Virus record (IMG/VR): IMGVR_UViG_3300045988_141150
Length of the DNA: 64,000 nt
Reading direction: 5' to 3' (one strand)
Source of the DNA: a virus
This document shows, one piece after another, positions 48,569-63,580 of this stretch (within the stretch, counting starts at the first letter, position 1; every line of letters starts with the position of its first letter). A model generated the notes under the pieces. It did no database searches and was not told the origin of the DNA. It saw only the letters and a program-made list of their open reading frames with translations. The translations under genes and the position numbers were made by a program.

Positions 48569-48597
48569 ATTATACTCGAAAAAATTTTTTTTGTCAA
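48569..48597 (-). promoter_or_regulatory. sigma70/sigmaA consensus promoter for the late operon
   Basis: minus-strand TTGACA (48592-97), 17-nt spacer, TATAAT (48569-74), about 20 nt upstream of the RBS and ATG of gene 47489..48544. Confidence 0.55.
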
Positions 48598-51859: not shown

Positions 51860-51888
51860 TTGACAAACCCCTTAGAGTGTGATACAAT
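51860..51888 (+). promoter_or_regulatory. consensus promoter driving the tRNA-like RNA
   Basis: cCTCTTGACAaacccc-17-TACAAT. Confidence 0.5.
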
Positions 51889-51900: not shown

Positions 51901-52012
51901 GGCGGTGAGGTAGAACGGTTCTACTTCCACAAAGATGGCTGAGATACAAAAGTGTCGCTCACTTGGAAACGTTCGCTATTGGAAAATGTGGGTTCAACTC
52001 CCACCACCGCCT
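51901..52012 (+). ncRNA. tRNA-like small RNA (about 112 nt): 7-bp acceptor stem, D-arm with GG, canonical TTCAACT T-arm, but an aberrant 34-nt anticodon region
   Basis: ggcggtg pairs with caccgcc; D-arm gtag-aacggtt-ctac; T-arm gtggg-ttcaact-cccac; own promoter; no ORF; stem ttcca/tggaa (25-29 with 64-68) encloses 34 nt; no CTA triplet in the loop. Confidence 0.35.
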
Positions 52013-52989: not shown

Positions 52990-53004
52990 AATTAAATTTT
53001 TTGA

Positions 53005-53250
53005 ATTAAAAATCTCCCCAAAAATGGGGAGATTTTTTTGTACATTTTATCTATTGACAATCCCAAAACTTCATGGTATAATCGGCCGGCGCGCGAACGG
53101 ACCTGGCGCGCCGAGTTTTTGTCAATAGGCGGGTTGCACAAATTTTTGGGGCAAATCTTTGTGCATAATGTCAATAGACAGAATCCCGAATTGGTGCTAT
53201 ACTATAATCACAGTAAGGGAAGGAAAACCTACCAAACCGGAAAGGGATAA
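53005..53250 (+). repeat. early intergenic cassette, short type: terminator, promoter P1, GC hairpin plus T-tract, GCACAAA box, promoter P2
   Basis: terminator 53009-53040; P1 TTGACA 53045 with TATAAT 53068; hairpin cggcgcgc..gcgcgccg 53078-53104 then agttttt; P2 TAGACA-17-TATACT 53166-53194. Confidence 0.6.
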
Positions 53251-53254
53251 CAAC

Positions 53255-53563
53255 ATGATTAACATTCGTTCTATTCTCAAACTCGCTGAAAATGACGGTC
53301 TGACCCTCAAACATGGCAAGAAGGTCAATTACAAGTCCGGCTGGCAGGTCGCCACTAATGGCGTTGAATGTAAGACCGCCCGCGAAGCCATTAACGCGGT
53401 CAAGGAATATGGCGGCAACTGCGGCGTGTGGTTTGCGAACGGCATTTATTATGTTGACAAGTCCAAGAGGGTGCAGACCAAGAAGCAGGCGCTTGAAATC
53501 GGCAAGGCGTGCAACCAAATCAGTGTATATGGCTGGGCGCGCGGCAATCTGGCTTACTGCTAA
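53255..53563 (+). CDS. hypothetical protein (102 aa)
   Basis: true start at the internal ATG 53255 with AAAGGGA RBS; TAA stop. Confidence 0.5.
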   Translation: MINIRSILKLAENDGLTLKHGKKVNYKSGWQVATNGVECKTAREAINAVKEYGGNCGVWFANGIYYVDKSKRVQTKKQALEIGKACNQISVYGWARGNLAYC

Positions 53564-53573
53564 AAAATTAAAT

Positions 53574-53609
53574 AGAGGGCTTGACAAAACAAGCCCTCTA
53601 TGCTATAAT
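53574..53609 (+). promoter_or_regulatory. promoter whose -35 box sits in the loop of a 7-bp hairpin (agagggc-TTGACAAAACAA-gccctct)
   Basis: TTGACA 53581-86, 17-nt spacer, TATAAT 53604-09. Confidence 0.5.
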
Positions 53610-53641
53610 AAAGGCACAATAAAGGAAAGGGAGAAAACAAC

Positions 53642-53911
53642 ATGGAAATTAAATATGCTCACGAAATGGCGGCTATCGCTAAGGACATCCGCACCGCCAA
53701 GCGCGCCAAAGATACTGCTACGGCCCGCGCCTATCTTGAAGAAAACCTGATGAAAGATATTGAAGACCACGCGGAAAAAGGCGAGAATTATCTGTCTCGC
53801 TGTCTCGTTGCCATTGAAGATGAAGCCGTGAAAGAAGCCTTAAAAAATCTTTTGCGGAATTATGGCTATACAACTTCTTATTCAAACGGCGTTCTCACCG
53901 TAAGGTGGTAA
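53642..53911 (+). CDS. hypothetical protein (89 aa)
   Basis: RBS AAAGGGAG; TAA stop. Confidence 0.55.
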   Translation: MEIKYAHEMAAIAKDIRTAKRAKDTATARAYLEENLMKDIEDHAEKGENYLSRCLVAIEDEAVKEALKNLLRNYGYTTSYSNGVLTVRW

Positions 53912-53916
53912 GGTAA

Positions 53917-53946
53917 AAGAGGGAAAATTTTTCCCTCTTTTTCTAA
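53917..53946 (+). terminator. rho-independent terminator
   Basis: agagggaaaa-ttttt-ccctcttt then ttc. Confidence 0.5.
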
Positions 53947-53954
53947 AAAACTTC

Positions 53955-53983
53955 TTGACAAATCCAAAAGCAGATGTTATAAT
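53955..53983 (+). promoter_or_regulatory. consensus promoter
   Basis: TTGACA-17-TATAAT. Confidence 0.55.
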
Positions 53984-54015
53984 AAAAGCACAATAAAGGA
54001 AAGGGGAATAAATTA

Positions 54016-54087
54016 ATGGAATGTCCTTATTGCGATGGAAAGTGCGGAACACATGCTCAATGCGTTAAATGCGGAAAAGGGAAATAA
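54016..54087 (+). CDS. zinc-ribbon micro-protein MECPYCDGKCGTHAQCVKCGKGK (23 aa)
   Basis: RBS AAGGAAAGGGG; four Cys arranged as CxxC..CxxC; overlaps the RBS of the next gene. Confidence 0.35.
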   Translation: MECPYCDGKCGTHAQCVKCGKGK

Positions 54088-54089
54088 AA

Positions 54090-54446
54090 ATGGGAACGGA
54101 ATTCTTAATTATTGGCGGAATTTTTAGCGCAGTCCTTGCGCTGTTTGTCTGCCTTGTCTGTTGGTGCCGCATGGAAAAGTCTCACCCAATAGTCAGATTG
54201 TTAGTTGGTATCCTTATTTCGTGCGCCATCGGTTATGGCATGACGGGCGCGTTAGTCGCAGAACATAATGCCGATAGAAAAGCATGGAACAACGGCTATT
54301 GCTCCATTTGCGGAAATGAAATGGAATTTGTAAATGCTTCTCATGGTCGGCATGGAACAGTTTATTACTATTGGTATTGCGATGAGTGCGGTCATACGTT
54401 AGAGTTAACTTCTAACTTTGCAAAGGGGGAAACAGATAATGAATGA
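54090..54446 (+). CDS. membrane protein with two transmembrane helices and a C-terminal zinc ribbon (118 aa)
   Basis: internal ATG 54090 with GGGAAATAAAA RBS; CSICGN..CDECGH. Confidence 0.5.
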   Translation: MGTEFLIIGGIFSAVLALFVCLVCWCRMEKSHPIVRLLVGILISCAIGYGMTGALVAEHNADRKAWNNGYCSICGNEMEFVNASHGRHGTVYYYWYCDECGHTLELTSNFAKGETDNE

Positions 54447-54645
54447 AAAAACTATCCCACAGGCTTTGAGAGAACAGGCAGACGCCATTGAAAAGTTAGC
54501 TCAAAGAATTGCGAAAGAAAGCAAGGAATTTCCAGACGAGGAAGACCGCAGAGACGGCGGAGAACTTGCGGACGCTTTATTTGCGATTCAATCAAAGCTC
54601 CGCTATGAGTACTCTTGGATTGCGGAAACCATGTGGGACGTGTAA
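54439..54645 (+). CDS. small acidic protein (68 aa)
   Basis: ATG 54439 overlaps the upstream gene by 8 nt (operon); TAA stop. Confidence 0.5.
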   Translation: MNEKTIPQALREQADAIEKLAQRIAKESKEFPDEEDRRDGGELADALFAIQSKLRYEYSWIAETMWDV

Positions 54646-54646
54646 T

Positions 54647-54688
54647 TTTCAGGCGAGATTTAATTATCTCGCCTGAAAATTTTTTTCA
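54647..54688 (+). terminator. rho-independent terminator
   Basis: ttttcaggcgagat..atctcgcctgaaaa then T7. Confidence 0.55.
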
Positions 54689-54729
54689 AAAAACTATTGA
54701 CAAACTCACCCCGTTGTGGTATTATAATC

Positions 54730-54798
54730 ATGTCAAGAGGAAGTGGTAAGCCTCTTGAAGTAGTGAACAAATTTCTCATACTATGGTTTGCGCGGTAG
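54730..54798 (+). CDS. leaderless micro-ORF MSRGSGKPLEVVNKFLILWFAR (22 aa) that ends in TAG
   Basis: ATG immediately after the -10 box; one of only two early-region reading frames terminated by TAG. Confidence 0.25.
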   Translation: MSRGSGKPLEVVNKFLILWFAR

Positions 54799-54830
54799 CC
54801 GATAATTACCGCGCCCTTTCTATTTCATTT

Positions 54831-54848
54831 TTGTTAAAATTTTAACAA
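54831..54848. promoter_or_regulatory. third palindrome TTGTTAAAATTTTAACAA (variant of the 50477 and 50899 site)
   Basis: perfect 18-bp palindrome; same half-site TTGTTAAAA. Confidence 0.35.
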
Positions 54849-54893
54849 TGATTGTTCGGCCGGGCGCGCACGGACCACGCGCCCGGAATTTCA

Positions 54894-54922
54894 ATTATAT
54901 CACAGGGCCAGCAATTTGTCAA
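54894..54922 (-). promoter_or_regulatory. reverse-strand consensus promoter firing leftward into the GC hairpin
   Basis: plus strand reads ATTATA-17-TGTCAA, which is TTGACA-17-TATAAT on the minus strand; the only minus-strand signals in a plus-strand region. Confidence 0.5.
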
Positions 54923-55048
54923 GCAAAAAGTCGCGAAAATTTGCATAAATTATTTTTCCCAATTTTGTGCGATCCGTCAATAGACAAATCTCTAAGAGTG
55001 TGTTATATTATAATTGTTCCAAGGGAACAGAAAGATGAGGTAAATAAA

Positions 55049-55255
55049 ATGACTAACTACAACATTCACTCTTTTATCAAGACCCAGCTTCTCCATGCCG
55101 AGCAGATGCCCAGCGATGCCGAACTTTTCAAGCATAACGCCTATGGCGCAGTCTCGTGGGAGTTATATCGCACGAATGACCATGCCCTTGAAGAACAGTG
55201 GGCAAATGTATATGCTCCCAAGTTCGACGCCATCATCAGAAATTATCATTTCTGA
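55049..55255 (+). CDS. hypothetical protein (68 aa)
   Basis: internal ATG 55049 with GAGG RBS; TGA stop. Confidence 0.5.
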   Translation: MTNYNIHSFIKTQLLHAEQMPSDAELFKHNAYGAVSWELYRTNDHALEEQWANVYAPKFDAIIRNYHF

Positions 55256-55261
55256 TAAAAA

Positions 55262-55296
55262 GGGCTTGACAAAAGCCCTTTCGCATGATATAATAC
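55262..55296 (+). promoter_or_regulatory. promoter with its -35 box in a hairpin loop (aagggc-TTGACAAA-gccctt)
   Basis: TTGACA 55268-73, 17-nt spacer, TATAAT 55291-96. Confidence 0.5.
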
Positions 55297-55324
55297 ATAT
55301 ACAATCAAGAAAGAGGTAAAACAA

Positions 55325-55663
55325 ATGCTTATCAAAATGTCAAAACACGCCACGCAAGACCGCATTGACCGCCTGCTCTTCATCTACGATAATGTAGGAA
55401 TCGGCGAACCGTATATCGACAGTGTTGAGGACGATGTTCTCTACACTATCACTACAACAGGTATTCTTCTTGTTCGTAGTGCTAAGGACGGAACACTCAT
55501 TACAGCCTATATCGCGGATATTGATAAAATCACCGCAATATGGAGAAATAAGCACGGCGAGCGCCCTATGCCTGATAACCTTTACAAGCGGGTTCTCGCA
55601 AACGCGTTCTTTGATAGAATGTGGAATAAGCAAGAAAAGGAGAAAAAGAAAAATGTTCGGTAA
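55325..55663 (+). CDS. hypothetical protein (112 aa)
   Basis: RBS AAGAGG; TAA stop; first gene of a 3-gene operon. Confidence 0.55.
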   Translation: MLIKMSKHATQDRIDRLLFIYDNVGIGEPYIDSVEDDVLYTITTTGILLVRSAKDGTLITAYIADIDKITAIWRNKHGERPMPDNLYKRVLANAFFDRMWNKQEKEKKKNVR

Positions 55664-56006
55664 GAAAAAGAAGCCTTTCAATCCATATGAAAAACGCGCG
55701 GACGATGCGCTTTATGAAGTATGGGAAACGCGCGACCGCCTTTATGAAAAGACAAGGCAAGTCATTACGCGCGTAGGGGTGATTAACCTTTACCCCAATG
55801 GCGCTGACCGCGAGAAAGCCGTCTCTGACGCCGAAGAAGCGAAGCACGCTTTGCTTGTAGCTATTGGAGCATACGACACCGCGCGCATGGAATACAATGA
55901 TTATGTTGAAAAAAACGCGGAAAAGTTTGACAACCATAAAGAAAAATGGACTACCACGAGCCATGAAATTATCGAATGGGCTTACAAATACTATTATAAA
56001 GGGTGA
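55653..56006 (+). CDS. hypothetical protein (117 aa)
   Basis: internal ATG 55653 with AAGGAG RBS; overlaps the upstream gene by 11 nt. Confidence 0.5.
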   Translation: MFGKKKKPFNPYEKRADDALYEVWETRDRLYEKTRQVITRVGVINLYPNGADREKAVSDAEEAKHALLVAIGAYDTARMEYNDYVEKNAEKFDNHKEKWTTTSHEIIEWAYKYYYKG

Positions 56007-56011
56007 ATAAA

Positions 56012-56245
56012 ATGAAGATTACTATTAAGAATAATAAACTCGCCCCCTTTGGAGAAATTGCCAAGGGCGTAGTTTTCAAAGACCCGACCGCCGAAGATTA
56101 TTACATCAAAATCGCCGCAGAGGTCGATGAAAATACCGGTGATGATGAATGGAATTGTCTCCATTTGGACAATTACGCTCTCGACTGTTTCGGCCTAAAA
56201 GATATGGTTCTCCCCATCTACGATGCGGAACTGATTATTCCCTGA
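56012..56245 (+). CDS. hypothetical protein (77 aa)
   Basis: ATG 56012 with AAAGGG RBS; the ORF-track start at 56003 is GTG. Confidence 0.45.
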   Translation: MKITIKNNKLAPFGEIAKGVVFKDPTAEDYYIKIAAEVDENTGDDEWNCLHLDNYALDCFGLKDMVLPIYDAELIIP

Positions 56246-56358
56246 TAAAACCGGACTTTGTCCGCGTTTCTCTCCCCCTTTCCTATGGCTTTGGCGGTTG
56301 TACCCCAAAAAACAACCGCCACCCTTTCCAAAAAATAAATTGAATGGAGATAAAAAAG

Positions 56359-56535
56359 ATGAAGAATGAGAAACTTAGTGAGGTTGTTAAAACTGTGTGC
56401 TTGATGGCACGATACGGCATTCAGAAGGGATATCCCTCGGGCGGGACAGAAGCAAATGACATGATTGAACGTGTCGCGCTTCTTGAAAACAAGCTCGTTC
56501 CCATTCTCGTCGACCTTGAAGCCGTAGAAAACTAA
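56359..56535 (+). CDS. hypothetical protein (58 aa)
   Basis: ATG 56359 with GGAG RBS; the alternative ATG at 56344 lacks an RBS. Confidence 0.4.
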   Translation: MKNEKLSEVVKTVCLMARYGIQKGYPSGGTEANDMIERVALLENKLVPILVDLEAVEN

Positions 56536-56757
56536 ATGAAAAATCACCCAATTTGGGTGATTTTTTTTGTTTACTTTCACTATTGACAAAGTTCCTTGAA
56601 TGTGATAAAATCGTCGGCGCGCGGACGATTGTGGCGCGCCGAGTTTTTTGTCAAGAGGTAAGTTCAACAAATTTTCGCACGAATTTTTGTGTAAAATGCC
56701 AATAGACAAAAATCCTATAATGTGGTAAGATGTATACAACAAATAGAGGGGGCTAAA
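56536..56757 (+). repeat. early intergenic cassette, short type (terminator, P1, GC hairpin plus T-tract, GCACGAA box, P2)
   Basis: terminator 56540-68; P1 TTGACA 56583 with TAAAAT 56606; hairpin cggcgcgc..gcgcgccg 56615-41 then agtttttt; P2 TAGACA-17-TAAGAT 56703-31; same stem sequence as the copy at 53078. Confidence 0.6.
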
Positions 56758-57105
56758 ATGATGGTTGCATGGTATTGGTTAATTCTCGCGTTTTGCGTGG
56801 GTATTGCGTTCGCTACAATCACTGATGAGTGGTATGATTGGGAAAACACTTTAACTGACATTCTTGCATGGATTGCTCTGATTATCGGCTTCGTTCCTTT
56901 GACTTTCTATTGCATATTTCTCAAACTGACGGTTTTCCACCCCACTACGCGAGAGAAGTTTGAGGAAGTCAAAAAGGTTAGCGAAGAAACTTGTAAAATC
57001 TATCGAGTATGCGGAAACGTGTATTTCTGGATTGACCTTAAAGCAACAAAAATCTATAACAAGGTATTCTTTATTCGAGTAAAGGAAACTGAAAACAATG
57101 GGTGA
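56758..57105 (+). CDS. membrane protein (115 aa, two transmembrane helices)
   Basis: internal ATG 56758 with AGAGGGGG RBS. Confidence 0.5.
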   Translation: MMVAWYWLILAFCVGIAFATITDEWYDWENTLTDILAWIALIIGFVPLTFYCIFLKLTVFHPTTREKFEEVKKVSEETCKIYRVCGNVYFWIDLKATKIYNKVFFIRVKETENNG

Positions 57106-57256
57106 AAGAGTTAATGTTTTATGTTTAATTGAGTGGTTGCGCGCTTGGACGGAAACCTTTAATGACTGCGCTTGTTGTCCTTTGTCCAACGAGTGCGACC
57201 GCCGGAGCATCAGTTATGAATGTGCTGATGACCTATTAGAAAAATTAAAGGAGTAA
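57098..57256 (+). CDS. Cys-rich micro-protein (52 aa)
   Basis: ATG overlaps the end of the upstream gene; 6 Cys; weak RBS. Confidence 0.25.
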   Translation: MGERVNVLCLIEWLRAWTETFNDCACCPLSNECDRRSISYECADDLLEKLKE

Positions 57257-57271
57257 ATTAAAAACTCTCTA

Positions 57272-57306
57272 TTGACATTTTTGTTATAATATGATATTAT
57301 TATAAT
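57272..57306 (+). promoter_or_regulatory. consensus promoter
   Basis: TTGACA-17-TATTAT/TATAAT. Confidence 0.5.
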
Positions 57307-57329
57307 AGAAAAAGGAAAGGGTGATAATA

Positions 57330-57803
57330 ATGAATACAATTCTTCTGTTCGCGCTTTGCACGGCGGTGAATGTTATTCTGTCAACTATCAAAAGCATTTT
57401 GACTGTTAAGGGCGGAAAACTTAGCGCGTCTTTCATCAACGCTCTCACTTATGGTTTTTATTCCTATGTGATTGTGCTGACTTCTGCGGACGGTATGCCT
57501 ATTTGGTTAAAAATGGCTATTACTGCCATTTGTAATTTCGTAGGCGTTTACCTTGTCAAGTGGATTGAAGAAAAAGCGCGTAAAGATAAATTATGGAAAG
57601 TCGAGCTTACCGTACCGACAAGATACACTAATACCATTGACTTTGACTTACATGATGTTCCACATTCTTACATTGAATTGAGCGATAAACATACGCTTTT
57701 CAATTTTTACTGCGCGACCCAAAAGGAAAGCGCAAAAGTCAAGGCTATCGCTAATCAGTATGAAGCAAAATATTTTGTTGCGGAAAGCAAAAATCTTGAA
57801 TAA
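57330..57803 (+). CDS. membrane protein (157 aa)
   Basis: ATG 57330 with AAAGGGTG RBS; multiple transmembrane helices; TAA stop. Confidence 0.5.
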   Translation: MNTILLFALCTAVNVILSTIKSILTVKGGKLSASFINALTYGFYSYVIVLTSADGMPIWLKMAITAICNFVGVYLVKWIEEKARKDKLWKVELTVPTRYTNTIDFDLHDVPHSYIELSDKHTLFNFYCATQKESAKVKAIANQYEAKYFVAESKNLE

Positions 57804-57837
57804 AGGGCTTGACAAAAGCCTTTTATTCTGCTATACT
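57802..57837 (+). promoter_or_regulatory. promoter with its -35 box in a hairpin loop (aaagggc-TTGACAAA-gcctttt)
   Basis: TTGACA 57809-14, 17-nt spacer, TATACT 57832-37. Confidence 0.5.
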
Positions 57838-57867
57838 TAACGTATCAAGTGAAAGGGGAAAATTAAA

Positions 57868-58320
57868 ATGAAAGCTACTGGTATCGTTCGCAGAATTGAT
57901 GACCTTGGACGTGTGGTCATTCCGAAAGAGATTCGCCGGACTTTGAAGATCCGCGAGGGCGACCCGCTTGAAATCTTCCTTGGAGAGGACAACTGCGTTT
58001 GCTTCAAGAGGTATTCAGTGCTTGGTTCGTTGACCGAAGAGGCTCTGCGAACCGCTATTACAATGGCGTCAAATTCCGGTCTACGCCCTATCGCAATTTA
58101 TGATACTACTGTAAAACTGCGGGGCATGGAAAACTTTTCGGCCTATGTCCCGACCCAGTGGGAATTTGAAAGAAAGCCATTTGTTTTCAATAATACCTAT
58201 GGCGTTTATCCGGTTTGCGCGGACGGCGACCTTGTGGGTTATGCGGTTTGCGACCAGCAAGACATGGGGTGTGAAATGGACATGATTGTTCGCTACCTCA
58301 GCATTGTGTCTGAACGTTAA
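57868..58320 (+). CDS. abrB-like: AbrB/SpoVT-family swapped-hairpin transcriptional regulator (150 aa)
   Basis: N-terminus MKATGIVRRIDDLGRVVIPKEIRRTLKIREGDPLEIF closely matches the AbrB/SpoVT N-domain (MKSTGIVRKVDELGRVVIPIELRRTLGI...); about 100-aa C-terminal extension. Confidence 0.7.
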   Translation: MKATGIVRRIDDLGRVVIPKEIRRTLKIREGDPLEIFLGEDNCVCFKRYSVLGSLTEEALRTAITMASNSGLRPIAIYDTTVKLRGMENFSAYVPTQWEFERKPFVFNNTYGVYPVCADGDLVGYAVCDQQDMGCEMDMIVRYLSIVSER

Positions 58321-58327
58321 AAAAATA

Positions 58328-58367
58328 GCACAAGGGGCTTGACAAAACAAGTCCCTTGTGCTATAAT
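58328..58367 (+). promoter_or_regulatory. promoter with its -35 box in the loop of a 9-bp hairpin (gcacaaggg..cccttgtgc)
   Basis: TTGACA 58339-44, 17-nt spacer, TATAAT 58362-67. Confidence 0.5.
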
Positions 58368-58396
58368 AAAACCATCAAAGGAAAGGGGCAAATAAA

Positions 58397-58573
58397 ATGG
58401 AAATTGAAAAGAAATTCCAGGTTGATTATAGCGGTAAAAATCCTTGGGACCAGTATTACGACAATCGGGTTAATTTTGATTCCGAAGAAAAAGCCGATGC
58501 TTTTATCCAAAAGTTGATGGAAGATGAAAATATCTATCAAATTTTCAAAACCATTACTGCCAGATACAGATAA
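58397..58573 (+). CDS. hypothetical protein (58 aa)
   Basis: RBS AAAGGGG; TAA stop; below the ORF-track size cut-off. Confidence 0.45.
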   Translation: MEIEKKFQVDYSGKNPWDQYYDNRVNFDSEEKADAFIQKLMEDENIYQIFKTITARYR

Positions 58574-58811
58574 AATTTGAGGTGAAAATTCACCTCATTT
58601 TTTTGGTTATTTTGCCTATTGACAAAAATCCAATAGTGTGATAAAATGGCCGGCCGTTTACGTATGCCACGGCCGGAACTTCAATTATACCAGAAGCCAG
58701 CAAATTTGTCAATCGGCAAAATGCACAAAAATCTAATTAGTTTTTTTCCCAAAATGTGCTTGACAAAATCCAGCAGATGCGCTATAATGTATTTAGAAAG
58801 AGGTGAAAAAC
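58574..58811 (+). repeat. early intergenic cassette, long type: terminator, P1, GC hairpin, reverse promoter, GCACAAA box, TTTTTTCCC box, P2
   Basis: terminator 58576-58606; P1 TTGACA 58619 with TAAAAT 58642; hairpin ccggccg..cggccgg 58650-76; reverse promoter 58684-58712; P2 58760-58788. Confidence 0.6.
58684..58712 (-). promoter_or_regulatory. reverse-strand perfect consensus promoter converging on P1 across the hairpin
   Basis: plus strand ATTATA-17-TGTCAA; the predicted minus transcript is hairpin plus UUUUAU (about 40 nt). Confidence 0.5.
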
Positions 58812-58970
58812 ATGGATAATTTCAAGAAAGCCACTGTAAAAGATTATACTGCTTGGGATTTGAATTGTAGAAACATTTGCCCTCACGATAAATCTTCTAA
58901 TAAACTGGAAAAGCGTATCAAGCGCAAGGCTCGCAGAAGTCTTAAACAAAATTTGAAAAAAAAGTATTGA
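58812..58970 (+). CDS. basic micro-protein (52 aa)
   Basis: RBS AAGAGGTG; its stop codon overlaps the -35 box of the next promoter. Confidence 0.4.
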   Translation: MDNFKKATVKDYTAWDLNCRNICPHDKSSNKLEKRIKRKARRSLKQNLKKKY

Positions 58971-58995
58971 CAAAATACAGCAAATGCGCTATAAT
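58967..58995 (+). promoter_or_regulatory. consensus promoter
   Basis: TTGACA-17-TATAAT (gcgcTATAAT). Confidence 0.55.
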
Positions 58996-59027
58996 GTAAG
59001 TACAGTAAAGGAAAGGGGTAAACACCA

Positions 59028-59528
59028 ATGAAAATCACTTACATCAAGTCTCACGTTGTGACCACTCGACGCTCTATCAACTTTGACATGGACGGCACTA
59101 TCGCTGACCTCTACGGCGTCAAGGATTGGCTCGCGCTTCTCCGTTCGGAAAATCCCACACCCTATCGGACTGCCGCTCCTATGTGCGATATGGCTGAATT
59201 GAATGAGGTTTGCGAACTTCTCCGCGCCGAGGGTTGGGAAATCAACATCATCACTTGGCTTTCCAAAGATTCGAGCGAGGAATACAAAAACCTCGTGCGT
59301 AAAGCAAAGCGTGCGTGGCTTGAAGAACAGGGCTTCCACTATGACCACTTCCACGGCGTCCAGTATGGCGCGACCAAAGCCGACAGCGTGCGCGACCGCT
59401 ATGACGTGTCCATCTTGGTTGACGATAATGAAAAGGTTCGGAATGGTTGGCACTTGGGCGCTACCATTGACCCGACCGCAGTAAACATTATCGAAAAACT
59501 TTCGGAACTTTTGGAGAAAAGGGCTTGA
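59028..59528 (+). CDS. HAD-superfamily 5'(3')-deoxyribonucleotidase-like phosphatase (166 aa)
   Basis: motif I INFDMDGTIADLYG (DxDGT); size and layout of the NT5C-type dNMP phosphatases common in phages. Confidence 0.55.
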   Translation: MKITYIKSHVVTTRRSINFDMDGTIADLYGVKDWLALLRSENPTPYRTAAPMCDMAELNEVCELLRAEGWEINIITWLSKDSSEEYKNLVRKAKRAWLEEQGFHYDHFHGVQYGATKADSVRDRYDVSILVDDNEKVRNGWHLGATIDPTAVNIIEKLSELLEKRA

Positions 59529-59553
59529 CAAAGCCCTACTCCAATGGTATAAT
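59520..59553 (+). promoter_or_regulatory. promoter with its -35 box in a hairpin loop (agggc-TTGACAA-agccct)
   Basis: TTGACA 59525-30, 17-nt spacer, TATAAT 59548-53. Confidence 0.5.
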
Positions 59554-59582
59554 AAATACATCAAATGAAAGGGGAAAATAAA

Positions 59583-59792
59583 ATGTTTGTTCTTTTAATT
59601 CTGCTGTCTCTCACAATTTCGTTCCTGCTTATCTCTGGTTTAGTTTGGCTTCTCTGTTGGCTTCTCCCTGCCATTGGTATCACCGCAATCGGCACTTTCA
59701 CCATCGTGTTCTCGTGGAAGCTGGCACTCGCAATTTGGATTATTCTCCTGCTTCTGAGCACTATCTTCCCGAGCGGTAGTAATAGGGGGTGA
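59583..59792 (+). CDS. small membrane protein (69 aa, two transmembrane helices)
   Basis: ATG 59583 with AAAGGGG RBS. Confidence 0.5.
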   Translation: MFVLLILLSLTISFLLISGLVWLLCWLLPAIGITAIGTFTIVFSWKLALAIWIILLLLSTIFPSGSNRG

Positions 59793-59795
59793 AAA

Positions 59796-59939
59796 ATGAT
59801 GCCTTATTTTTGGCTTACTCTTGGCGTTCTCGCCAAAGTGACCGGACGAACTGCCGGTGGTAATTATCGCTATGAAACGGTTGTCTCTAAGGAAATCGGA
59901 CTTGTGACCGCAGACTGGGTCAATACTCATCTGCTGTAA
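59796..59939 (+). CDS. micro-protein (47 aa) with a hydrophobic N-terminus
   Basis: RBS AGGGGGTG; TAA stop. Confidence 0.3.
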   Translation: MMPYFWLTLGVLAKVTGRTAGGNYRYETVVSKEIGLVTADWVNTHLL

Positions 59940-59957
59940 AAGAAAGGGGAAACAAAA

Positions 59958-60215
59958 ATGAAAGTAAATTTTGGCACTAAGGGTCAGGTTCAGATTATTA
60001 ACATTCTCAGCGGTGGCACATTCACCGACCCGCGCACCAATGGTAACGGTATGGGAATGTATCTCAAAATTGACAGCCATAACAACACGCCGTTTGTCCG
60101 GTCGAGAGGTTCGCAGTTTTGCTATGCTGTGAATCTTGAAACGGGTCAGATTCGCGAGTTCCCGCGCGAAAAGATGGTAACGCCAGTCAAGACCGAGGTC
60201 AATGTAATTGGCTAA
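59958..60215 (+). CDS. hypothetical protein (85 aa)
   Basis: RBS AAAGGGG; TAA stop. Confidence 0.55.
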   Translation: MKVNFGTKGQVQIINILSGGTFTDPRTNGNGMGMYLKIDSHNNTPFVRSRGSQFCYAVNLETGQIREFPREKMVTPVKTEVNVIG

Positions 60216-60451
60216 AAGAAAATCTCCCCAAAAATGGGGAGATTTTTTTGTTTACTTTGACTATTGACAAAGTTCCTTGAATGTGATATAATGGGCCGGC
60301 CGTTTCCGCGCGCTACGGCCGGAATTCACCATTATACACCCTGCCAGCATTTTTGTCAAGAGAAATTTCGCACAAATTTCAATTTTATTTTTTCCCGTTA
60401 TTTGGTCATTTTACCAATAGACAAATCAAGACCAATCTGTTATACTACATA
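60216..60451 (+). repeat. early intergenic cassette, long type; its terminator is identical to the one at 53009..53040
   Basis: terminator 60219-50; P1 60264-92; hairpin ccggccg..cggccgg 60296-60322; reverse promoter 60331-59; P2 TAGACA-17-TATACT 60418-46. Confidence 0.6.
60331..60359 (-). promoter_or_regulatory. reverse-strand consensus promoter
   Basis: plus strand ATTATA-17-TGTCAA. Confidence 0.5.
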
Positions 60452-60571
60452 ATGTCAGGAGGAAAGAGTAAGACCTACGGAAAGGCAGTTCCCTTGACCA
60501 TTATACCAGAAGCCGACACAAGGAATGTTCCAAGCGTGGCATGCCGAACAAACTTTCAAAAAAAAGTTTGA
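60452..60571 (+). CDS. leaderless micro-ORF MSGGKSKTYGKAVPLTIIPEADTRNVPSVACRTNFQKKV (39 aa)
   Basis: ATG 5 nt after the -10 box; related in sequence to the micro-ORF at 62767. Confidence 0.3.
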   Translation: MSGGKSKTYGKAVPLTIIPEADTRNVPSVACRTNFQKKV

Positions 60572-60579
60572 AAAACCCC

Positions 60580-60608
60580 TTGACAAACCGCTCGACTTAT
60601 GGTATAAT
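60580..60608 (+). promoter_or_regulatory. consensus promoter
   Basis: TTGACA-17-(tgg)TATAAT. Confidence 0.55.
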
Positions 60609-60639
60609 GAATACATCAAATGAGAGAGGTAAAAACAAG

Positions 60640-60669
60640 ATGACTTCTAATGCTCGCCCACCGCCTTAA
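60640..60669 (+). CDS. 9-codon micro-ORF MTSNARPPP ending Pro-Pro-Pro-stop (candidate leader peptide)
   Basis: RBS AGAGGTAAAAACAAG; a tandem related copy follows at 60721. Confidence 0.25.
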   Translation: MTSNARPPP

Positions 60670-60720
60670 AAACTGATTTGATTTCTTGACTTAAAGATTG
60701 TAGATAGAGGTATAAACAAG

Positions 60721-60753
60721 ATGTATAGTAATAAAGCTCGCGACCGCCCCTAA
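60721..60753 (+). CDS. 10-codon micro-ORF MYSNKARDRP ending Pro-stop
   Basis: RBS AGAGGTATAAACAAG; same context as the 60640 micro-ORF. Confidence 0.25.
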   Translation: MYSNKARDRP

Positions 60754-60771
60754 AAAAATTCGCAAAACCTA

Positions 60772-60800
60772 TTGACAACCTGCTCCGCATATGATATAAT
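60772..60800 (+). promoter_or_regulatory. consensus promoter
   Basis: TTGACA-17-(tga)TATAAT. Confidence 0.55.
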
Positions 60801-60851
60801 AACTACATCAAAGACAAGGACAGTCTCAAAAACCAGAAAGGAATTGATACT

Positions 60852-61226
60852 ATGGCTACTTCTACTACTAAGAAGCTCACTAAGCGTGACCGTTTCGAGG
60901 CTCTGCTCAAAATGTCCGAGGTTCAGGCAAATCCTGATATGGTGGCGTTCATCGAGCATGAGATTGAACTGCTCGCCAAGAAGAACGCGGGCGACAAGAA
61001 GCCCACGGCTAAGCAGATGGAGAACGACGCCGTGAAGCAGGTCATTCTGGACGAGATGATCGCAAACCCTGACAAGCTCTACACTGTAACCGAACTCATC
61101 AAAGGCGTTCCCGAACTTGCGGAGTATTCCAATCAGCGCGTTTCCGCTCTTCTGCGCCAGATGATTGACGCCAACGCGGTTGTCAAGACGGTTGACAAGC
61201 GCAAGTCCTACTTCTCCCTCGCGTGA
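60852..61226 (+). CDS. hypothetical protein, paralogue A (124 aa)
   Basis: RBS AAAGGAATTGATACT; about 70% identical to the protein at 63203..63580. Confidence 0.55.
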   Translation: MATSTTKKLTKRDRFEALLKMSEVQANPDMVAFIEHEIELLAKKNAGDKKPTAKQMENDAVKQVILDEMIANPDKLYTVTELIKGVPELAEYSNQRVSALLRQMIDANAVVKTVDKRKSYFSLA

Positions 61227-61233
61227 GGGCAAG

Positions 61234-61262
61234 GGCAGGGGATAAAAAAAATCCCCTGCCCT
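61234..61262 (+). terminator. hairpin with an A8 loop (gggcaggggat-A8-tcccctgccc), atypical terminator
   Basis: follows the paralogue gene; no 3' U-tract. Confidence 0.3.
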
Positions 61263-61274
61263 ATAAAAAAACTG

Positions 61275-61303
61275 TTGACAAACCAATAGCAAAGTGCTAT
61301 ACT
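61275..61303 (+). promoter_or_regulatory. consensus promoter
   Basis: TTGACA-17-(tgc)TATACT. Confidence 0.55.
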
Positions 61304-61325
61304 ATTATCAGAGGTTGAGAGAACG

Positions 61326-61355
61326 ATGGTAAATCTCAATCTACTTTTCCAATAG
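61326..61355 (+). CDS. upstream micro-ORF MVNLNLLFQ terminated by TAG inside the RBS of the exonuclease gene
   Basis: the TAG at 61353-55 overlaps the AGGAG RBS of the gene starting at 61367. Confidence 0.25.
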   Translation: MVNLNLLFQ

Positions 61356-61366
61356 GAGATGGTAAA

Positions 61367-62143
61367 ATGGGTATTGATAGGCGCAAAAACTACGGCATTA
61401 TGCTGGACACGGAAACCGCAAACACCATTCAAGACGGCGATAAGCTGGATATGTCAAATGTGCTTCCATACGACTTCGGCTGGGCGGTCATTGATTCCAA
61501 GGGAAATGTTTATGAAACTCATTCTTTTGTGAATCGCGATATTTTCTGCTACGAGCGCGACCTCATGCAGTCTGCCTACTACGCCGACAAAATTCCCCGC
61601 TATGTCGAGGATATTAAGAACGGCACTCGCATTATGGCTGACCTTTACGAAATTCGTCTTGCATTCTGTGAATGTGTCGAGCGTTATAACTGCTCTTTTG
61701 TCTGCGCTCATAATATGCGGTTCGACCTTAACGCCTGTAATAACGCGCAAAGATGGGATACGAAAAGCAAGTATCGCTATTTTTTCCCCTACGGCCTTGA
61801 AGTTTGGGACACGCTGAAAATGGCGCGACAGGTTATTGGCAAAATGCCCACTTACCGCGACTATTGCGAAAAGAATGGCTACAAGACCAAAAACGGACAG
61901 CTCCGTTTTACAGCAGAAATTCTTTACCGCTTTATCAGCGGTGAAGATAGTTTTGATGAGTCCCACACGGGACTTGAAGATGTCCTCATTGAAGTTGAGA
62001 TTTTGCGCTATTGCGTCCGACAGCACAAGAAAATGGAAAAGTCCCTTTTCAAAAATTCCACGGTGGAACGCCCTAAGCCTACCGAGTTTCAGCGCGCGCT
62101 CATGCGAAACATTAAGGAAAATCCTATGATAAACATGAGCTAA
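61367..62143 (+). CDS. DEDDh 3'-5' exonuclease (DnaQ / RNase T-like, 258 aa)
   Basis: Exo I motif IMLDTETAN, Exo II motif FVCAHNMRFDLN, Exo III motif SHTGLEDVLIEVEIL. Confidence 0.6.
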   Translation: MGIDRRKNYGIMLDTETANTIQDGDKLDMSNVLPYDFGWAVIDSKGNVYETHSFVNRDIFCYERDLMQSAYYADKIPRYVEDIKNGTRIMADLYEIRLAFCECVERYNCSFVCAHNMRFDLNACNNAQRWDTKSKYRYFFPYGLEVWDTLKMARQVIGKMPTYRDYCEKNGYKTKNGQLRFTAEILYRFISGEDSFDESHTGLEDVLIEVEILRYCVRQHKKMEKSLFKNSTVERPKPTEFQRALMRNIKENPMINMS

Positions 62144-62149
62144 AAAAAT

Positions 62150-62190
62150 AGGGAATAGGGCTTGACAAGTCCTATTCCCTATGGTATAAT
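62150..62190 (+). promoter_or_regulatory. promoter with its -35 box in the loop of a 10-bp hairpin (agggaatagg..cctattccct)
   Basis: TTGACA 62162-67, 17-nt spacer, TATAAT 62185-90. Confidence 0.5.
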
Positions 62191-62219
62191 CAATACATCA
62201 AATGAAAGAGGTGTTCCAC

Positions 62220-62498
62220 ATGACTGCTAAACAAGTCCTTTTTGTAGTCCCCGATGAAAATGACCCTCACATGGGCATTTTAATCAACCATGACTATGTT
62301 ATCTGCGCTGAATGCGGTGGCGTCTTTGAAGTCGATGAGGTTTTCATCATCAAGACCTATGACGTTTGGGTAAACTTTGAAGACGAAATTGCGGACGAGC
62401 TTGACCTGCTGACCGCAAAAGACATTGGCAAAGAGCTGAATAGCAAGGGAGAATCCGGTCGTTACGCATGGAAAGAAGCAATTAAGAGGGAGTTTTGA
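62220..62498 (+). CDS. hypothetical protein (92 aa) with a CxxC pair
   Basis: internal ATG 62220 with AAGAGGTG RBS; TGA stop. Confidence 0.5.
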   Translation: MTAKQVLFVVPDENDPHMGILINHDYVICAECGGVFEVDEVFIIKTYDVWVNFEDEIADELDLLTAKDIGKELNSKGESGRYAWKEAIKREF

Positions 62499-62520
62499 AA
62501 ATGGATTTGGATTTCCACCT

Positions 62521-62766
62521 GCTGGAATAAATAAAAAACTGCCCAAAAATGGGCAGTTTTTTTTTGTCTATTTTGCCTATTGACAAATGCGGATTTTTGT
62601 GATAAAATGGTCGGCCCGCTAACGCCCAAAGCGGGCCGAACTCACCATTATACCACGCCCCGCCAATTTTGTCAAGAGAAAAGTTGCACAAAAATGAAAA
62701 AAATTTTTTCCCGTAATTTGGCTATTCTGTCAATTGTATTCTGTGGGCAATCTGCTATAATAGATA
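62521..62766 (+). repeat. early intergenic cassette, long type
   Basis: terminator 62536-66; P1 TTGACA 62579 with TAAAAT 62602; hairpin tcggcccgc..gcgggccga 62610-38; reverse promoter 62646-74; TTTTTTCCC box; P2 with extended -10 tgcTATAAT 62756-61. Confidence 0.6.
62646..62674 (-). promoter_or_regulatory. reverse-strand consensus promoter
   Basis: plus strand ATTATA-17-TGTCAA. Confidence 0.5.
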
Positions 62767-62865
62767 ATGTCAGGAGGGAACAGTGAATTGCCGAACGGCT
62801 TCGCTGATGGGTGTGATAACTCGGTAACTGACCCGTTTTCAAAGAAATTTGAAATTCCCTCTTGA
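62767..62865 (+). CDS. leaderless micro-ORF MSGGNSELPNGFADGCDNSVTDPFSKKFEIPS (32 aa)
   Basis: ATG 6 nt after the -10 box; related to the micro-ORF at 60452. Confidence 0.3.
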   Translation: MSGGNSELPNGFADGCDNSVTDPFSKKFEIPS

Positions 62866-62890
62866 CAAACCCCTGCGAGTGTGCTACAAT
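62862..62890 (+). promoter_or_regulatory. consensus promoter flanked by the inverted repeat CTCTTGACA ... TGTCAAGAG
   Basis: TTGACA-17-TACAAT; aTGTCAAGAGgg at the start site. Confidence 0.5.
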
Positions 62891-62895
62891 AGAAA

Positions 62896-63009
62896 ATGTC
62901 AAGAGGGAGTAGCCCAAGAAATCCGAGGGCGCGCGACCTTGAGAAAGTACAGGAAGTAAACATAATACACCACGTTGTAAAGCCAAACGTTGAACGCGAA
63001 AGTGAGTGA
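62896..63009 (+). CDS. leaderless micro-ORF MSRGSSPRNPRARDLEKVQEVNIIHHVVKPNVERESE (37 aa); alternatively the 5' end of a small RNA
   Basis: ATG 5 nt after the -10 box; followed by about 90 nt of structured non-coding sequence. Confidence 0.25.
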   Translation: MSRGSSPRNPRARDLEKVQEVNIIHHVVKPNVERESE

Positions 63010-63123
63010 GAGTGAGCCAGCTATACTTGAAGCGATTTTCGCTGACAGATAGACTGAGCCAACGGGCAATACCTTATCCGTCAGGTCGGGGTAGTAATTC
63101 GTGTAAAAAGTTTGCGAAACCTC

Positions 63124-63152
63124 TTGACAAACATTTCAAAGTGTGGTACACT
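63124..63152 (+). promoter_or_regulatory. promoter
   Basis: cTCTTGACAaac-17-(tgg)TACACT. Confidence 0.45.
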
Positions 63153-63202
63153 TAATATATCAAAAGGGTAGCGACCTACCGCCAAAGAAAGGAATTGATA
63201 CT

Positions 63203-63580
63203 ATGTCTACTTCTACTACTAAGAAGCTCACTAAGCGCGACCGTTTCGAGGCTCTGCTCAAGATGTCCGAGGTTCAGGCTGACCCCGCCATGGTTGAGTT
63301 TATCAATCACGAGATTGACCTGCTGGCTCGCAAGAATGCCGGTGATAAGAAGCCGACCGCGAATCAGATTGCCAACGATGGTTACAAGGACATTATCTTT
63401 GCCGAGCTGTCCGCCAATCCTGACAAGCTCTACACTGTGACCGAACTCATTAAGACTGTGGACGGTTTGGGTGACCTCTCCAATCAGCGCGTCTCCGCTC
63501 TTCTGCGTCAGATGATTGAAGCGAACGGTGTCGAGAAGATTGTCGACAAGCGCAAGTCCTATTTCCGTCTCGCCCACTGA
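63203..63580 (+). CDS. hypothetical protein, paralogue B (125 aa)
   Basis: internal ATG 63203 with the same RBS context as 60852; about 70% identical to paralogue A. Confidence 0.55.
   Translation: MSTSTTKKLTKRDRFEALLKMSEVQADPAMVEFINHEIDLLARKNAGDKKPTANQIANDGYKDIIFAELSANPDKLYTVTELIKTVDGLGDLSNQRVSALLRQMIEANGVEKIVDKRKSYFRLAH

Follow-up and report, generated by a model that had tools for sequence, protein, structure and literature searches.

Organisation of the locus

The window analysed here is a 64,000-nt stretch of DNA from an IMG/VR virus record (IMGVR_UViG_3300045988_141150), and our subject is an intergenic cassette, built around a short GC-rich stem-loop, that is repeated among the genes of its right-hand part. 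Two compositional domains make up the window. Positions 1-48547 have ~29% GC and carry minus-strand genes that are sensible only if TAG is taken as a sense codon; with TAG read through, coding is near-continuous and includes open reading frames (ORFs) of 2583 and 2760 amino acids (aa), which appear only under read-through. From ~49740 to the window end, GC content is ~43%, the standard code applies and small plus-strand ORFan genes are densely packed. A jump of 14 points in GC content inside one phage genome is striking. Read from the sequence alone, with no domain search, the products of the first domain appear to be structural: tail fibre, tape measure (~2760 aa), baseplate parts, portal and large terminase (TerL). 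We conclude that the DNA comes from an uncultivated TAG-recoded tailed phage, of which the 43%-GC part is the host-takeover early region.

Each early-region gene follows a near-perfect TTGACA-17-TATAAT promoter, in most cases TG-extended, and has a strong ribosome-binding site rich in purines. A promoter scan gave 87 promoter-like sites where 33 are expected, and the early region holds ~35 promoters per 14 kb, i.e. one per ~400 nt. Pfam and PHROGs recognise just three early-region products (AbrB/MazE-like at 57868-58320, HAD/PNKP-like and exonuclease-like). The style of promoters and ribosome-binding sites suggests a Firmicutes-type host, which remains uncertain because the matches in GTDB genomes are only binned metagenome contigs (Mollicutes, Clostridia and “uncultured bacterium”). 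Searches of GenBank phages (n=50,697; megablast and blastn with the early region or one cassette) revealed no DNA similarity. The relatives compared here are IMG/VR contigs of 85-197 kb plus three contigs from metagenome bins, with the labels Mollicutes, Clostridia and uncultured.

A repeated cassette around a GC-rich stem-loop

An earlier reading of the letters of the window (hereafter the sequence-only reading) described five full and two partial copies of a cassette in the early region. The repeated cassette is real: the five full copies (c1 to c5, from left to right) align over ~250 nt with their parts in the order described. The terminator of the upstream gene (T1) is followed by a forward promoter (P1), the stem-loop, either a T-tract or a head-on promoter on the minus strand (the reverse promoter), operator-like boxes and the promoter of the next gene (P2). 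A covariance model, R1, was built from 36 diverse stem-loop copies. With filters off, cmsearch of the whole 64 kb with R1 gave exactly seven matches, all on the plus strand, with E-values of 5e-14 to 2e-9 (49877-49920, 53080-53123, 54853-54896, 56608-56651, 58643-58686, 60289-60332 and 62605-62648); the next best hit has E 0.07, and none of the seven lies in 1-49000, the 48-kb late region. Alignment and a covariance search had been proposed as the check on the sequence-only reading, and each of the copies so found has E < 2e-9. Both partial copies (p49 and p54, below) carry the stem-loop, but in the one placed at 54643 a non-coding unit of ~100 nt separates promoter and hairpin.

Folding energies of the seven copies range from -15.1 to -23.3 kcal/mol, and there are five stem types, cggcgcgc (c1, c2), ccggccg (c3, c4), cggcccgc (c5), ccgggcgcg (p54) and cggctcgc (p49), where two families had been described. 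Copy p49 (49877-49920; core 49884-49910), also seen in a hairpin scan, has a stem extendable to 10 bp followed by TTTTATAAAAAT (R1 34.5 bits, E 1.9e-9; -23.3 kcal/mol). It is the first element of the 43%-GC early region, and has neither P1 nor reverse promoter. In c1 (53080-53123; core 53087-113; 41 bits) the arms CGGCGCGC/GCGCGCCG enclose an 11-nt loop and are followed by AG, T5 and TGTCAA; in c2 (56608-56651; core 56614-642; 44.7 bits) a 9-bp stem is followed by G, T6 and TGTCAA. These two copies and p49, which has T4 directly 3' of the stem, form class A. In the other four copies the 3' flanks are AATTTC (p54), AACTTC (c3), AATTCA (c4) and AACTCA (c5). Copy p54 (54853-54896; core 54860-886) has a 9-bp stem and a 9-nt loop (47.1 bits; -19.9 kcal/mol); it has no adjoining P1, and the non-coding unit 54733-54830 precedes it. 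Class B contains, besides p54, c3 (58643-58686; core 58650-676; 42.9 bits), whose stem CCGGCCG(T)/(A)CGGCCGG has the 3' flank AACTTCAAT and no T-tract, c4 (60289-60332; core 60296-322; 44.8 bits) and c5 (62605-62648; core 62611-639; 39.6 bits; -20.4 kcal/mol), the arms of which are TCGGCCCGC/GCGGGCCGA.

Upstream of the stem-loop, T1 of c1 (53009-53040, plus strand like all features here unless stated) is an A-tract/stem/T-tract terminator of the preceding gene, and is terminator-like on both strands, as are those of c2 (56538-56566), c3 (58578-58604), c4 (60216-60250) and c5 (62533-62565). The terminators at 53009-53040 and 60219-60250 are identical over 32 nt, as had been noticed. P1 reads TTGACA-17-TATAAT in c1 (53054-53082) and is likewise perfect in c4 (60264-60292), while it reads TTGACA-17-TAAAAT in c2 (56583-56611), c3 (58619-58647) and c5 (62580-62608); all five have the TG. 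Its -10 box ends 4, 2 and 3 nt before the stem in c1, c3 and c4, respectively, and in general the gap to the 7-bp core stem is 2-4 nt and not the 5-8 nt that had been reported.

Downstream, four copies have a reverse promoter matching TTGACA-17-TATAAT at all 12 positions, as the sequence-only reading held, and at an equal offset from the hairpin: p54 (54922-54894, with TG, its -10 box 7 nt from the stem), c3 (58712-58684, with TG, predicted start ~58677 at the stem base), c4 (60359-60331, 8 nt from the stem) and c5 (62675-62647, with TG). By our own arithmetic ~1e-3 such perfect promoters are expected by chance per 14 kb per strand. That these are the sole minus-strand signals does not hold, since there are weaker 10/12 sites at 58871, 57327 and 54749, and a perfect one at 48597-48569, just outside the early region. 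This last (48569-48597, minus strand) heads the TAG-recoded late or structural block, before a 352-aa ORF (47489-48547), so that the recoded block has a host-type promoter for its first gene at least.

Between hairpin and P2, ~10 nt from the reverse -35 box, lie TTGCACAA/TTGTGCAA boxes (53136-53164, 54964-54970, 56686-56692, 58723-58729, 60370-60376 and 62686-62692; also in relatives L015-L017 and L144); the GCACAAA and T5-7CCC boxes described earlier are present at their places. In c1 they are inverted (TTGCACAAA ... TTTGTGCA, 53136-53164) and make a probable protein operator. The half-sites do not covary in relatives, and the boxes are probably an operator for a regulator protein; they also loosely resemble a relaxed DnaA box. 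P2 reads TAGACA-17-TATACT in c1 (53175-53203, before gene 53255-53563), TAGACA-17-TATATT in p54 (54981-55009, before gene 55049-55255), TAGACA-17-TAAGAT in c2 (56703-56731, before gene 56758-57105), TTGACA-17-TATAAT in c3 (58760-58788, before gene 58812-58970) and TAGACA-17-TATACT in c4 (60418-60446, before a non-coding unit beginning GTCAGGAGG at 60455). In c5 a TATAAT (62756-62761) with a poor -35 box precedes a non-coding unit beginning GTCAGGAGG at 62770. All four promoters of the early region with a TAGACA-type, i.e. weak, -35 box are cassette P2s, suggesting that the genes behind cassettes have a distinct promoter, probably regulated, that would need to be shielded from read-through.

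Selection on pairing in the stem-loop

Retrieval of 22 loci by way of a neighbouring protein yielded 76 distinct hairpin variants, the common form of which is (T/C/G)GG, C-S-G-N-N-C-G (plus 1-2 bp), a loop of 9-13 nt, C-G-N-N-C-S-G and A(A/G)TTT. In the alignment of 36 copies, a sample selected for intact stems, 97% of stem cells are paired, with 57 double-change cells at four of the eight pairs, and neither any of 500 shuffles nor any slid register approaches this. Two samples with less bias agree. Copies located by their flanks alone, at the same syntenic position, keep the stem by way of CGGCCCG/CGGGCCG, CGGACCG/CGGTCCG and CCGGTCG/CGACCGG. Among unique 27-nt segments taken at the fixed promoter distance (with at most one mismatch), 100 of 127 have a perfect 7-bp stem. 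Stems with a single mismatch comprise six G:T (G:U) and eight A:C cases, with no bias. The overall length is ~27 nt in contigs near the window and 37-38 nt in more distant ones, where the loop is partly replaced by extra pairs to give stems of 10-14 bp and loops of 4-6 nt; thus no loop motif is required. The 3' flank A(A/G)TTT is retained with or without a reverse promoter.

Taken together, the alignments indicate that intrastrand pairing is what is conserved in the stem-loop. A duplex operator for a dimeric protein is ruled out, as variable stem positions stay complementary and such a protein needs no complementary changes at positions that it does not contact. A DNA cruciform is unlikely with 8-bp arms and 11-nt spacers, and for an 8-bp stem with an 11-nt loop RNA appears to be the likelier level of action.

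Distribution and evolution of the cassettes

Model matches are co-oriented within every locus, the seven of the window as well as 115, 51 and 16 in relatives. An IMG/VR search for a pattern of two convergent perfect promoters 30-45 nt apart, for which the chance expectation by our own arithmetic is well below one, gave at least 120 stretches. Approximately half of the matches listed belong to the GC-hairpin family, from ~18 different samples, and the element is also found in the three binned metagenome contigs. The remaining matches listed include face-to-face promoters of divergent gene pairs, which look like lysis-lysogeny switches distinct from the hairpin cassettes. Examples are L024, L028, L030, L042, L101 and L116, unrelated phage contigs of IMG/VR with perfect face-to-face promoters 31-39 nt apart between divergent genes; some switch-like contigs have another hairpin (TGGGTAA...TTACCCA) between the promoters, an arrangement that seems common in metagenomic phages.

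Cassettes are 71-77% identical to one another over 150-270 nt. Breakpoints against close relatives lie at 53004-53033, 54704, 56535-56563, 58326/58601, 58753/58990 and 62514-62517, counted with no control for promoter density; relative L002, for example, lacks window positions 54704-56563, from promoter to promoter. The genes that vary between relatives are 58397-58573, 58812-58970 and 62780-62860. Hairpin variants are common to different cassette positions of one genome (L009), which suggests gene conversion. The identical terminators had been taken to point to recent duplication; with identities of 71-77% and relatives' breakpoints at the cassette joints, the similarity of the cassettes seems better described as concerted evolution plus modular shuffling. 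Past the right end of the window, relatives L003 (13605-13800) and L013 (13313-13400) carry cassette variants with CCGATCGG palindromes in the P1 spacer and after the hairpin, which suggest a second operator type, and L003 has two hairpins 120 nt apart.

Promoter geometry and the two states of the cassette

Across relatives the stem-loop is placed after a canonical terminator, with the operator-like boxes and the P2 of the next gene downstream. Of 109 unique copies, 56 have a terminator-like site no more than 130 nt upstream; for random positions nearby the figure is 4%. The gap from the end of the P1 -10 box to the stem is 2-4 nt in 68 of 95 unique copies, and a reverse -10 box stands 7-8 nt from the stem in 43 of the 95. 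Start sites can be calibrated on the early-region promoters of units beginning GTCAAGAGG, in which the conserved 5' end lies 7-8 nt past the -10 box, and P1 would therefore start at stem position 4-6, while the reverse promoter, 7-8 nt from the stem, would start at the stem base. The two predicted starts are ~23-27 bp apart and the promoter footprints overlap. It had been claimed that P1 transcripts begin in the stem and cannot fold it. The predicted start does fall inside the 5' arm; the predicted loss is confined to the outer 3-5 pairs, and an inner stem of 3-6 pairs could form all the same (-3 to -14 kcal/mol, compared with -15 to -23 kcal/mol for the whole stem-loop).

P1 had been listed as a part of the cassette, and this does not extend to the most distant relatives. 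In L144, a relative of 59% protein identity, P1 is absent and the hairpin lies 8-12 nt past the T-tract of T1; in a clade of 62% identity P1 is irregular. The conserved core is, on this comparison, the terminator of the upstream gene plus the stem-loop, with P1 a clade-specific insertion.

Copies without a reverse promoter have hairpin, AG, T4-6 and TGTCAA; the reverse -35 box is thus kept, and the 25-26 nt of spacer and -10 box are missing. The alternation of T-tract and reverse promoter, which the sequence-only reading had listed as two options at this place, is consequently a single 25-26-nt indel polymorphism, both states of which occur throughout the family, and ~40% of relatives' copies have T4 or more after the stem. 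Copies of class A (c1, c2 and p49), with stems of -18 to -23 kcal/mol followed by T4-6, are predicted to be ordinary forward intrinsic terminators.

Where the reverse promoter is present, its hexamers and TG stay consensus across contigs with differing spacers, and 16 of 78 such copies have no P1. Of the 62 cassettes that have a reverse promoter, 39 carry TAAAAT as the -10 box of P1, compared with 13 of the 37 that lack one, the sequences being related and not independent. The predicted reverse RNA has the GC hairpin at its 5' end, followed by CCAUUUUAUCAC where the P1 -10 box is TAAAAT; the U-tract after the stem is AUUUUA in c3 and c5 and AUUAUA in c4, and there is none at 54860. A reverse RNA of ~40 nt, ending in a U-tract that complements the P1 -10 box, had been proposed; this would suit c3, c5 and c4 and agrees with the enrichment of TAAAAT, whereas at 54860 no such tract exists and the RNA would otherwise run for ~100-110 nt, to the upstream bidirectional terminator. 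For c5 the predicted RNA extends from ~62640 to ~62530, and consists of a 5' GC hairpin, a linker and the T1 hairpin read backwards.

Comparison with known systems

The closest described elements are the promoter-early stem-loop (PeSL) cassettes of T4-type phages (Arbiol et al. 2010, PMC2839356; Comeau et al. 2014, PMC4122927), defined as composites of a terminator and a near-consensus sigma-70 early promoter (TTGACA-N17-TATAAT) that are repeated among ORFans at indel sites (PMC4122927). T1 and P1 of the five cassettes, with 11-12 of 12 promoter positions matched plus TG, resemble a PeSL, as do the many copies among small ORFan early genes and perhaps their position at indel or replacement breakpoints between close relatives. 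Unlike PeSLs, the cassettes have, past the promoter, a second, GC-rich and covarying stem-loop that contains the start site, and ~40% of copies have a perfect head-on promoter, followed by a second, operator-flanked promoter. Moreover, the phage is unrelated to T4-like myoviruses (it is TAG-recoded, with a ~2760-aa tape-measure-like ORF and a probable Firmicutes host), and its distant relatives lack the promoter part and retain the hairpin.

As an intrinsic terminator the stem-loop is typical in its GC-rich stem of -15 to -23 kcal/mol, in the T4-6 of c1, c2 and 49884 and in its place at the end of a unit, right after another terminator. It differs in having loops of 9-13 nt in the window, two unpaired purines between the stem and the T's, and just 2-3 T in four of the seven copies. 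Its flanks are asymmetric with no upstream A-tract, so that the stem-loop is not itself bidirectional, and a promoter starts inside the stem.

In P2 (Pe/Pc) and 186 (pR/pL), face-to-face promoters form switches that work by transcriptional interference, each promoter driving genes. The cassettes share with these two strong convergent promoters, overlapping predicted transcripts, starts ~23-27 bp apart and boxes beside one promoter; at this distance the open complexes should exclude each other, and the interference mechanism of face-to-face promoters has been described (PMC5001618, PMC6593788). The reverse promoter here, in contrast, points back towards the 3' end of the upstream gene, with a bidirectional terminator 70-110 nt off, and the module occurs four to eight times per genome, not once. 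No credible minus-strand ORF follows the reverse promoters, where there are only short overlapping ORFs without ribosome-binding sites. Lambda oop and P22 sar are likewise opposite-strand promoter-to-terminator units of less than ~110 nt convergent with a major early transcript, but each occurs singly and covers coding or ribosome-binding sequence of its particular target; the overlap here is only intergenic (T1, alone or together with P1), and what the predicted RNAs have in common is the 5' hairpin. At lambda sib, RNase III acts on the stability of int mRNA. In lambda sib/tI, as is proposed here, an RNA structure is complete only in transcripts initiated far upstream and not in those from a nearby promoter, and therefore two transcript classes would be treated differently. 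Our hairpin has only 8-9 bp, too short for RNase III, as which it is thus rejected, and the effect proposed is termination.

Further identities were considered and set aside. N4-type promoters have a 5-7-bp stem, a 3-nt loop and conserved flanks; a hairpin promoter of this type was judged unlikely with the window's stems of 7-10 bp and loops of 9-13 nt, and no virion RNA polymerase was recognised in the window, where the giant ORFs were given no domain search, the other 100-130 kb of the genome not having been examined. A ribozyme like that of hepatitis delta virus (theta ribozyme) was considered since the phages with the cassette are recoded (PMC10879173); we judge the loop too short for P2/P3/L3, and Rfam gave no match. 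A mobile palindrome of the repetitive extragenic palindrome or miniature inverted-repeat transposable element type is rejected, the copies being co-oriented at the same cassette position with a 5' flank (T/C/G)GG and not GTAG; none of the early genes that were scanned looked like a transposase. Mimicry of a CRISPR (clustered regularly interspaced short palindromic repeats) repeat, as an RNA anti-CRISPR, is rejected for loops far larger than those of repeat hairpins and no repeat-like 3' handle. In a single-strand promoter (Frpo/ssi type) reading, the hexamers pair and the spacers do not, a trivial consequence of convergent consensus promoters. Across the window the only Rfam match at the gathering score is a tRNA-like gene, with none on the hairpins at E up to 1. 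Sub-threshold matches to the enterobacterial small RNA STnc230 (29-37 bits, cut-off 50) fall on the bodies of predicted reverse RNAs (53004-53079, 56530-56608 and 62526-62605, minus strand), and probably reflect a terminator plus A/U-rich composition. The literature searched on recoded-phage early promoters and on face-to-face promoters with hairpins holds no description of the element. As far as these searches go, a covarying GC stem-loop with a start site inside it and a gene-less head-on promoter belongs neither to PeSLs nor to other described systems.

Other features of the window

Direct repeats TGATTTGAAATT(A/G)AAAATTGATTT lie right at the junction of the two compositional domains (49597-49704), as two near-exact copies with a looser third between them, and may be iterons or mark a genome end. 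The tRNA-like gene mentioned above is 112 nt long (51901-52012, plus strand) and is preceded by a consensus promoter of its own (51860-51888); the acceptor stem is GGCGGTG/CACCGCC and the T arm is canonical. With 37 bits it reaches the Rfam tRNA gathering score, while ARAGORN rejects it with introns allowed or not. It could be an unusual or suppressor-related tRNA of the TAG-recoded phage.

Six promoter-driven units on the plus strand (51575, 51762, 54733, 60455, 62770 and 62897) have no credible ORF and begin with GTCAAGAGG or GTCAGGAGG 7-8 nt past the -10 box. Two of them are the products of cassette P2s (c4 and c5). Their Shine-Dalgarno-like 5' ends may be 5' stabilisers, and Rfam has no match for any of the six. 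Tandem tiny ORFs with good ribosome-binding sites, MTSNARPPP* (60640-60669) and MYSNKARDRP* (60722-60754), lie on the plus strand behind a promoter at 60580-60608 and upstream of gene 60852-61226; they may encode leader peptides, the first of which ends in a proline run. This gene belongs to a block of cassette, non-coding unit, promoter and 124/125-aa gene that is duplicated in tandem (60216-61226 and 62521-63580). The paralogues 60852-61226 and 63203-63580 have ~75-78% DNA identity, and their products have no Pfam or PHROGs match.

A proposed mechanism and its alternatives

The element is real, conserved and widespread, and its architecture is plausibly regulatory. From anatomy, conservation, covariation and geometry, which are read from the sequence, we infer each step of transcription, termination and interference that follows. 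We tentatively favour, at somewhat less than even confidence, the view that the cassette is an orientation-specific boundary module acting at the RNA level, which would be closed by a T-tract in some copies and in others by head-on transcription yielding a short antisense RNA capped with the hairpin. The early region would be transcribed by the host sigma-A/sigma-70 RNA polymerase, with the cassette as a composite boundary and regulatory module, in which T1 would be an ordinary bidirectional terminator and the 27-nt GC stem-loop a second, orientation-specific stop in RNA. In class A, T4-6 after the stem-loop would complete a forward intrinsic terminator. In class B, a 25-26-nt insert in place of the T-tract would combine with the pre-existing TGTCAA to give a consensus head-on promoter, at which polymerase would start at the stem base and make a short antisense RNA that begins with the hairpin. 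This RNA would end past the stem where the P1 -10 box gives AUUUUA, or at T1 read backwards, and the head-on polymerase and its short transcript would occupy the 70-110 bp from hairpin to T1, blocking or colliding with polymerases arriving from the left. P1, inserted between T1 and the stem-loop, would start inside the 5' arm, and its transcripts, being without the outer pairs that abut the T-tract, would escape the stop. Downstream expression might then be set by the competition of P1 with the reverse promoter, together with the weaker P2 flanked by TTGCACAA/TTGTGCAA. We favour a boundary role because it is the simplest account for both classes, the strict orientation, the ARTTT flank and the post-terminator position; an element always placed after a canonical terminator and before the promoter of the next gene fits a boundary or insulator.

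Several points weigh against this account. Copies of class B, having just 2-3 T after the stem, would not be forward terminators, and that they serve the same function as class A by other means is something we infer. The stem mismatches show no wobble bias (six against eight) and so do not reveal the strand whose RNA matters. T1 already looks efficient, so a second stop 10-45 nt further on looks redundant, and loops of 9-13 nt are unusual for intrinsic terminators. The fixed distance from P1 to the stem may stem from the shared descent of cassettes that are 71-77% identical, and not from selection. Finally, a pure insulator is hard to square with a strong P1 upstream of P2, from which the downstream gene would be transcribed in any case unless P1 itself is blocked; such a block might be achieved by the reverse promoter (with starts ~25 bp apart the open complexes would be mutually exclusive) or by the operators. 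The insulator of the sequence-only reading is thus consistent with the position after a terminator and before P2, the selection on the stem and the geometry, and leaves a consensus P1 upstream of a weaker, operator-flanked P2 unexplained.

Of the other explanations, an unlikely one, although we take it seriously, is that the reverse RNA is itself the functional product, i.e. that the cassettes make abundant, stable cis-antisense small RNAs of ~40-110 nt, with the 5' GC hairpin as stabiliser and the backwards T1 as 3' end, which pair in the manner of lambda oop with the 3' ends of upstream mRNAs or the 5' end of P1 transcripts and alter their stability, or act as decoys. A stem-loop at the 5' terminus stabilises RNA in Firmicutes, the reverse promoter, perfect and TG-extended, is kept across divergent contigs with its predicted start 0-2 nt from the stem, and the predicted RNAs fold as 5' hairpin, linker and terminator at -38 to -44 kcal/mol. 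The predicted RNA of 54860 would lie antisense to a non-coding unit that has its own promoter, and the 16 of 78 copies with a reverse promoter and no P1 also agree with such a role. Yet 52 of 95 unique copies from the protein-retrieved relatives have no reverse promoter and keep the hairpin with its asymmetric flanks, and class A copies are unable to make such an RNA. Beyond the hairpin only promoter-complement sequence is shared, the overlap is intergenic and not coding, and the stem mismatches show no excess of A:C, the wobble of the minus strand. We consider it improbable that the cassettes are chiefly recombination modules like the PeSLs of T4-type phages, which shuffle early ORFans and in which the hairpin would be a redundant passenger terminator and the reverse promoter a by-product. 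The identity of 71-77% between cassettes over 150-270 nt, the breakpoints between close relatives at cassette joints (such as the absence of 54704-56563 from L002), the hairpin variants shared across cassette positions in L009 and the nature of PeSLs as terminator and near-consensus sigma-70 promoter composites at indel sites (PMC4122927) all speak for it, but breakpoints near promoters are expected anyway with ~35 promoters per 14 kb, and the reverse hexamers stay perfect while the spacers diverge. Compensatory stem changes, strict orientation and fixed promoter distances hold down to 59-62% protein identity, and this persistence argues that the hairpin itself has a function.

A binding site for a specific protein, on RNA or on extruded DNA, such as a nut/boxB-like antitermination site or an N4-like hairpin promoter, seems to us more improbable still. 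It would accord with the constant overall length of 27 nt, the invariant stem positions (C.G..CG / CG..C.G), the conserved asymmetric flanks (GG 5', ARTTT 3') and the single co-oriented copy per transcription unit; it accords poorly with loops that are variable and, in relatives, replaceable by pairs (10-14-bp stems, 4-6-nt loops). No RNA polymerase gene was recognised in the window, whose two giant ORFs are read, from sequence alone and with no domain search, as tape-measure and tail-fibre, and with so many consensus sigma-70 promoters the early genes need no second polymerase. That the convergent promoters prime DNA replication or act on DNA, as a kind of origin or as a folded Frpo-type single-strand promoter, is very improbable. 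As single-stranded DNA, P1, hairpin and reverse promoter do fold as one long hairpin with -35/-35 and -10/-10 paired (-15 to -23 kcal/mol, z -2.9 to -5.5), and convergent starts ~25 bp apart could in principle prime both leading strands, but the fold is trivial with two convergent consensus promoters, whose spacers are unpaired, and 7-12 copies in ~15 kb are implausible for origins. Tailed phages package double-stranded DNA, and with TerL, portal and a tape-measure-like protein encoded in the window single-stranded entry is not expected; copies without either promoter also exist.

Significance

The wider proposal, which we regard as possible but doubtful, is that TAG-recoded gut or rumen phages share a widespread class of boundary: a covarying GC stem-loop after each early terminator, bypassed by a forward consensus promoter that starts in its 5' arm and closed by a T-tract or by a perfect head-on promoter firing a hairpin-capped mini-RNA towards the terminator. 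Such a “promoter-in-terminator” insulator and interference toggle would occur 4-12 times per genome and would time the early genes. If this is true, it would be a compact device that shows one RNA structure to one class of transcripts and hides it from another, and head-on promoters would serve as boundary elements repeated along a phage takeover region. It would be of interest for bacterial transcription (terminator bypass, promoter interference and fully consensus promoters) and to synthetic biologists seeking short insulators. Phage biologists would gain a view of temporal control in uncultivated recoded phages, the early regions of which have to work in the standard code. As a searchable RNA/DNA motif with a covariance model, the element flags early regions across a large group of metagenomic phages. 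It also carries the PeSL idea, the shuffling of early genes via repeated regulatory cassettes, beyond T4-like phages.

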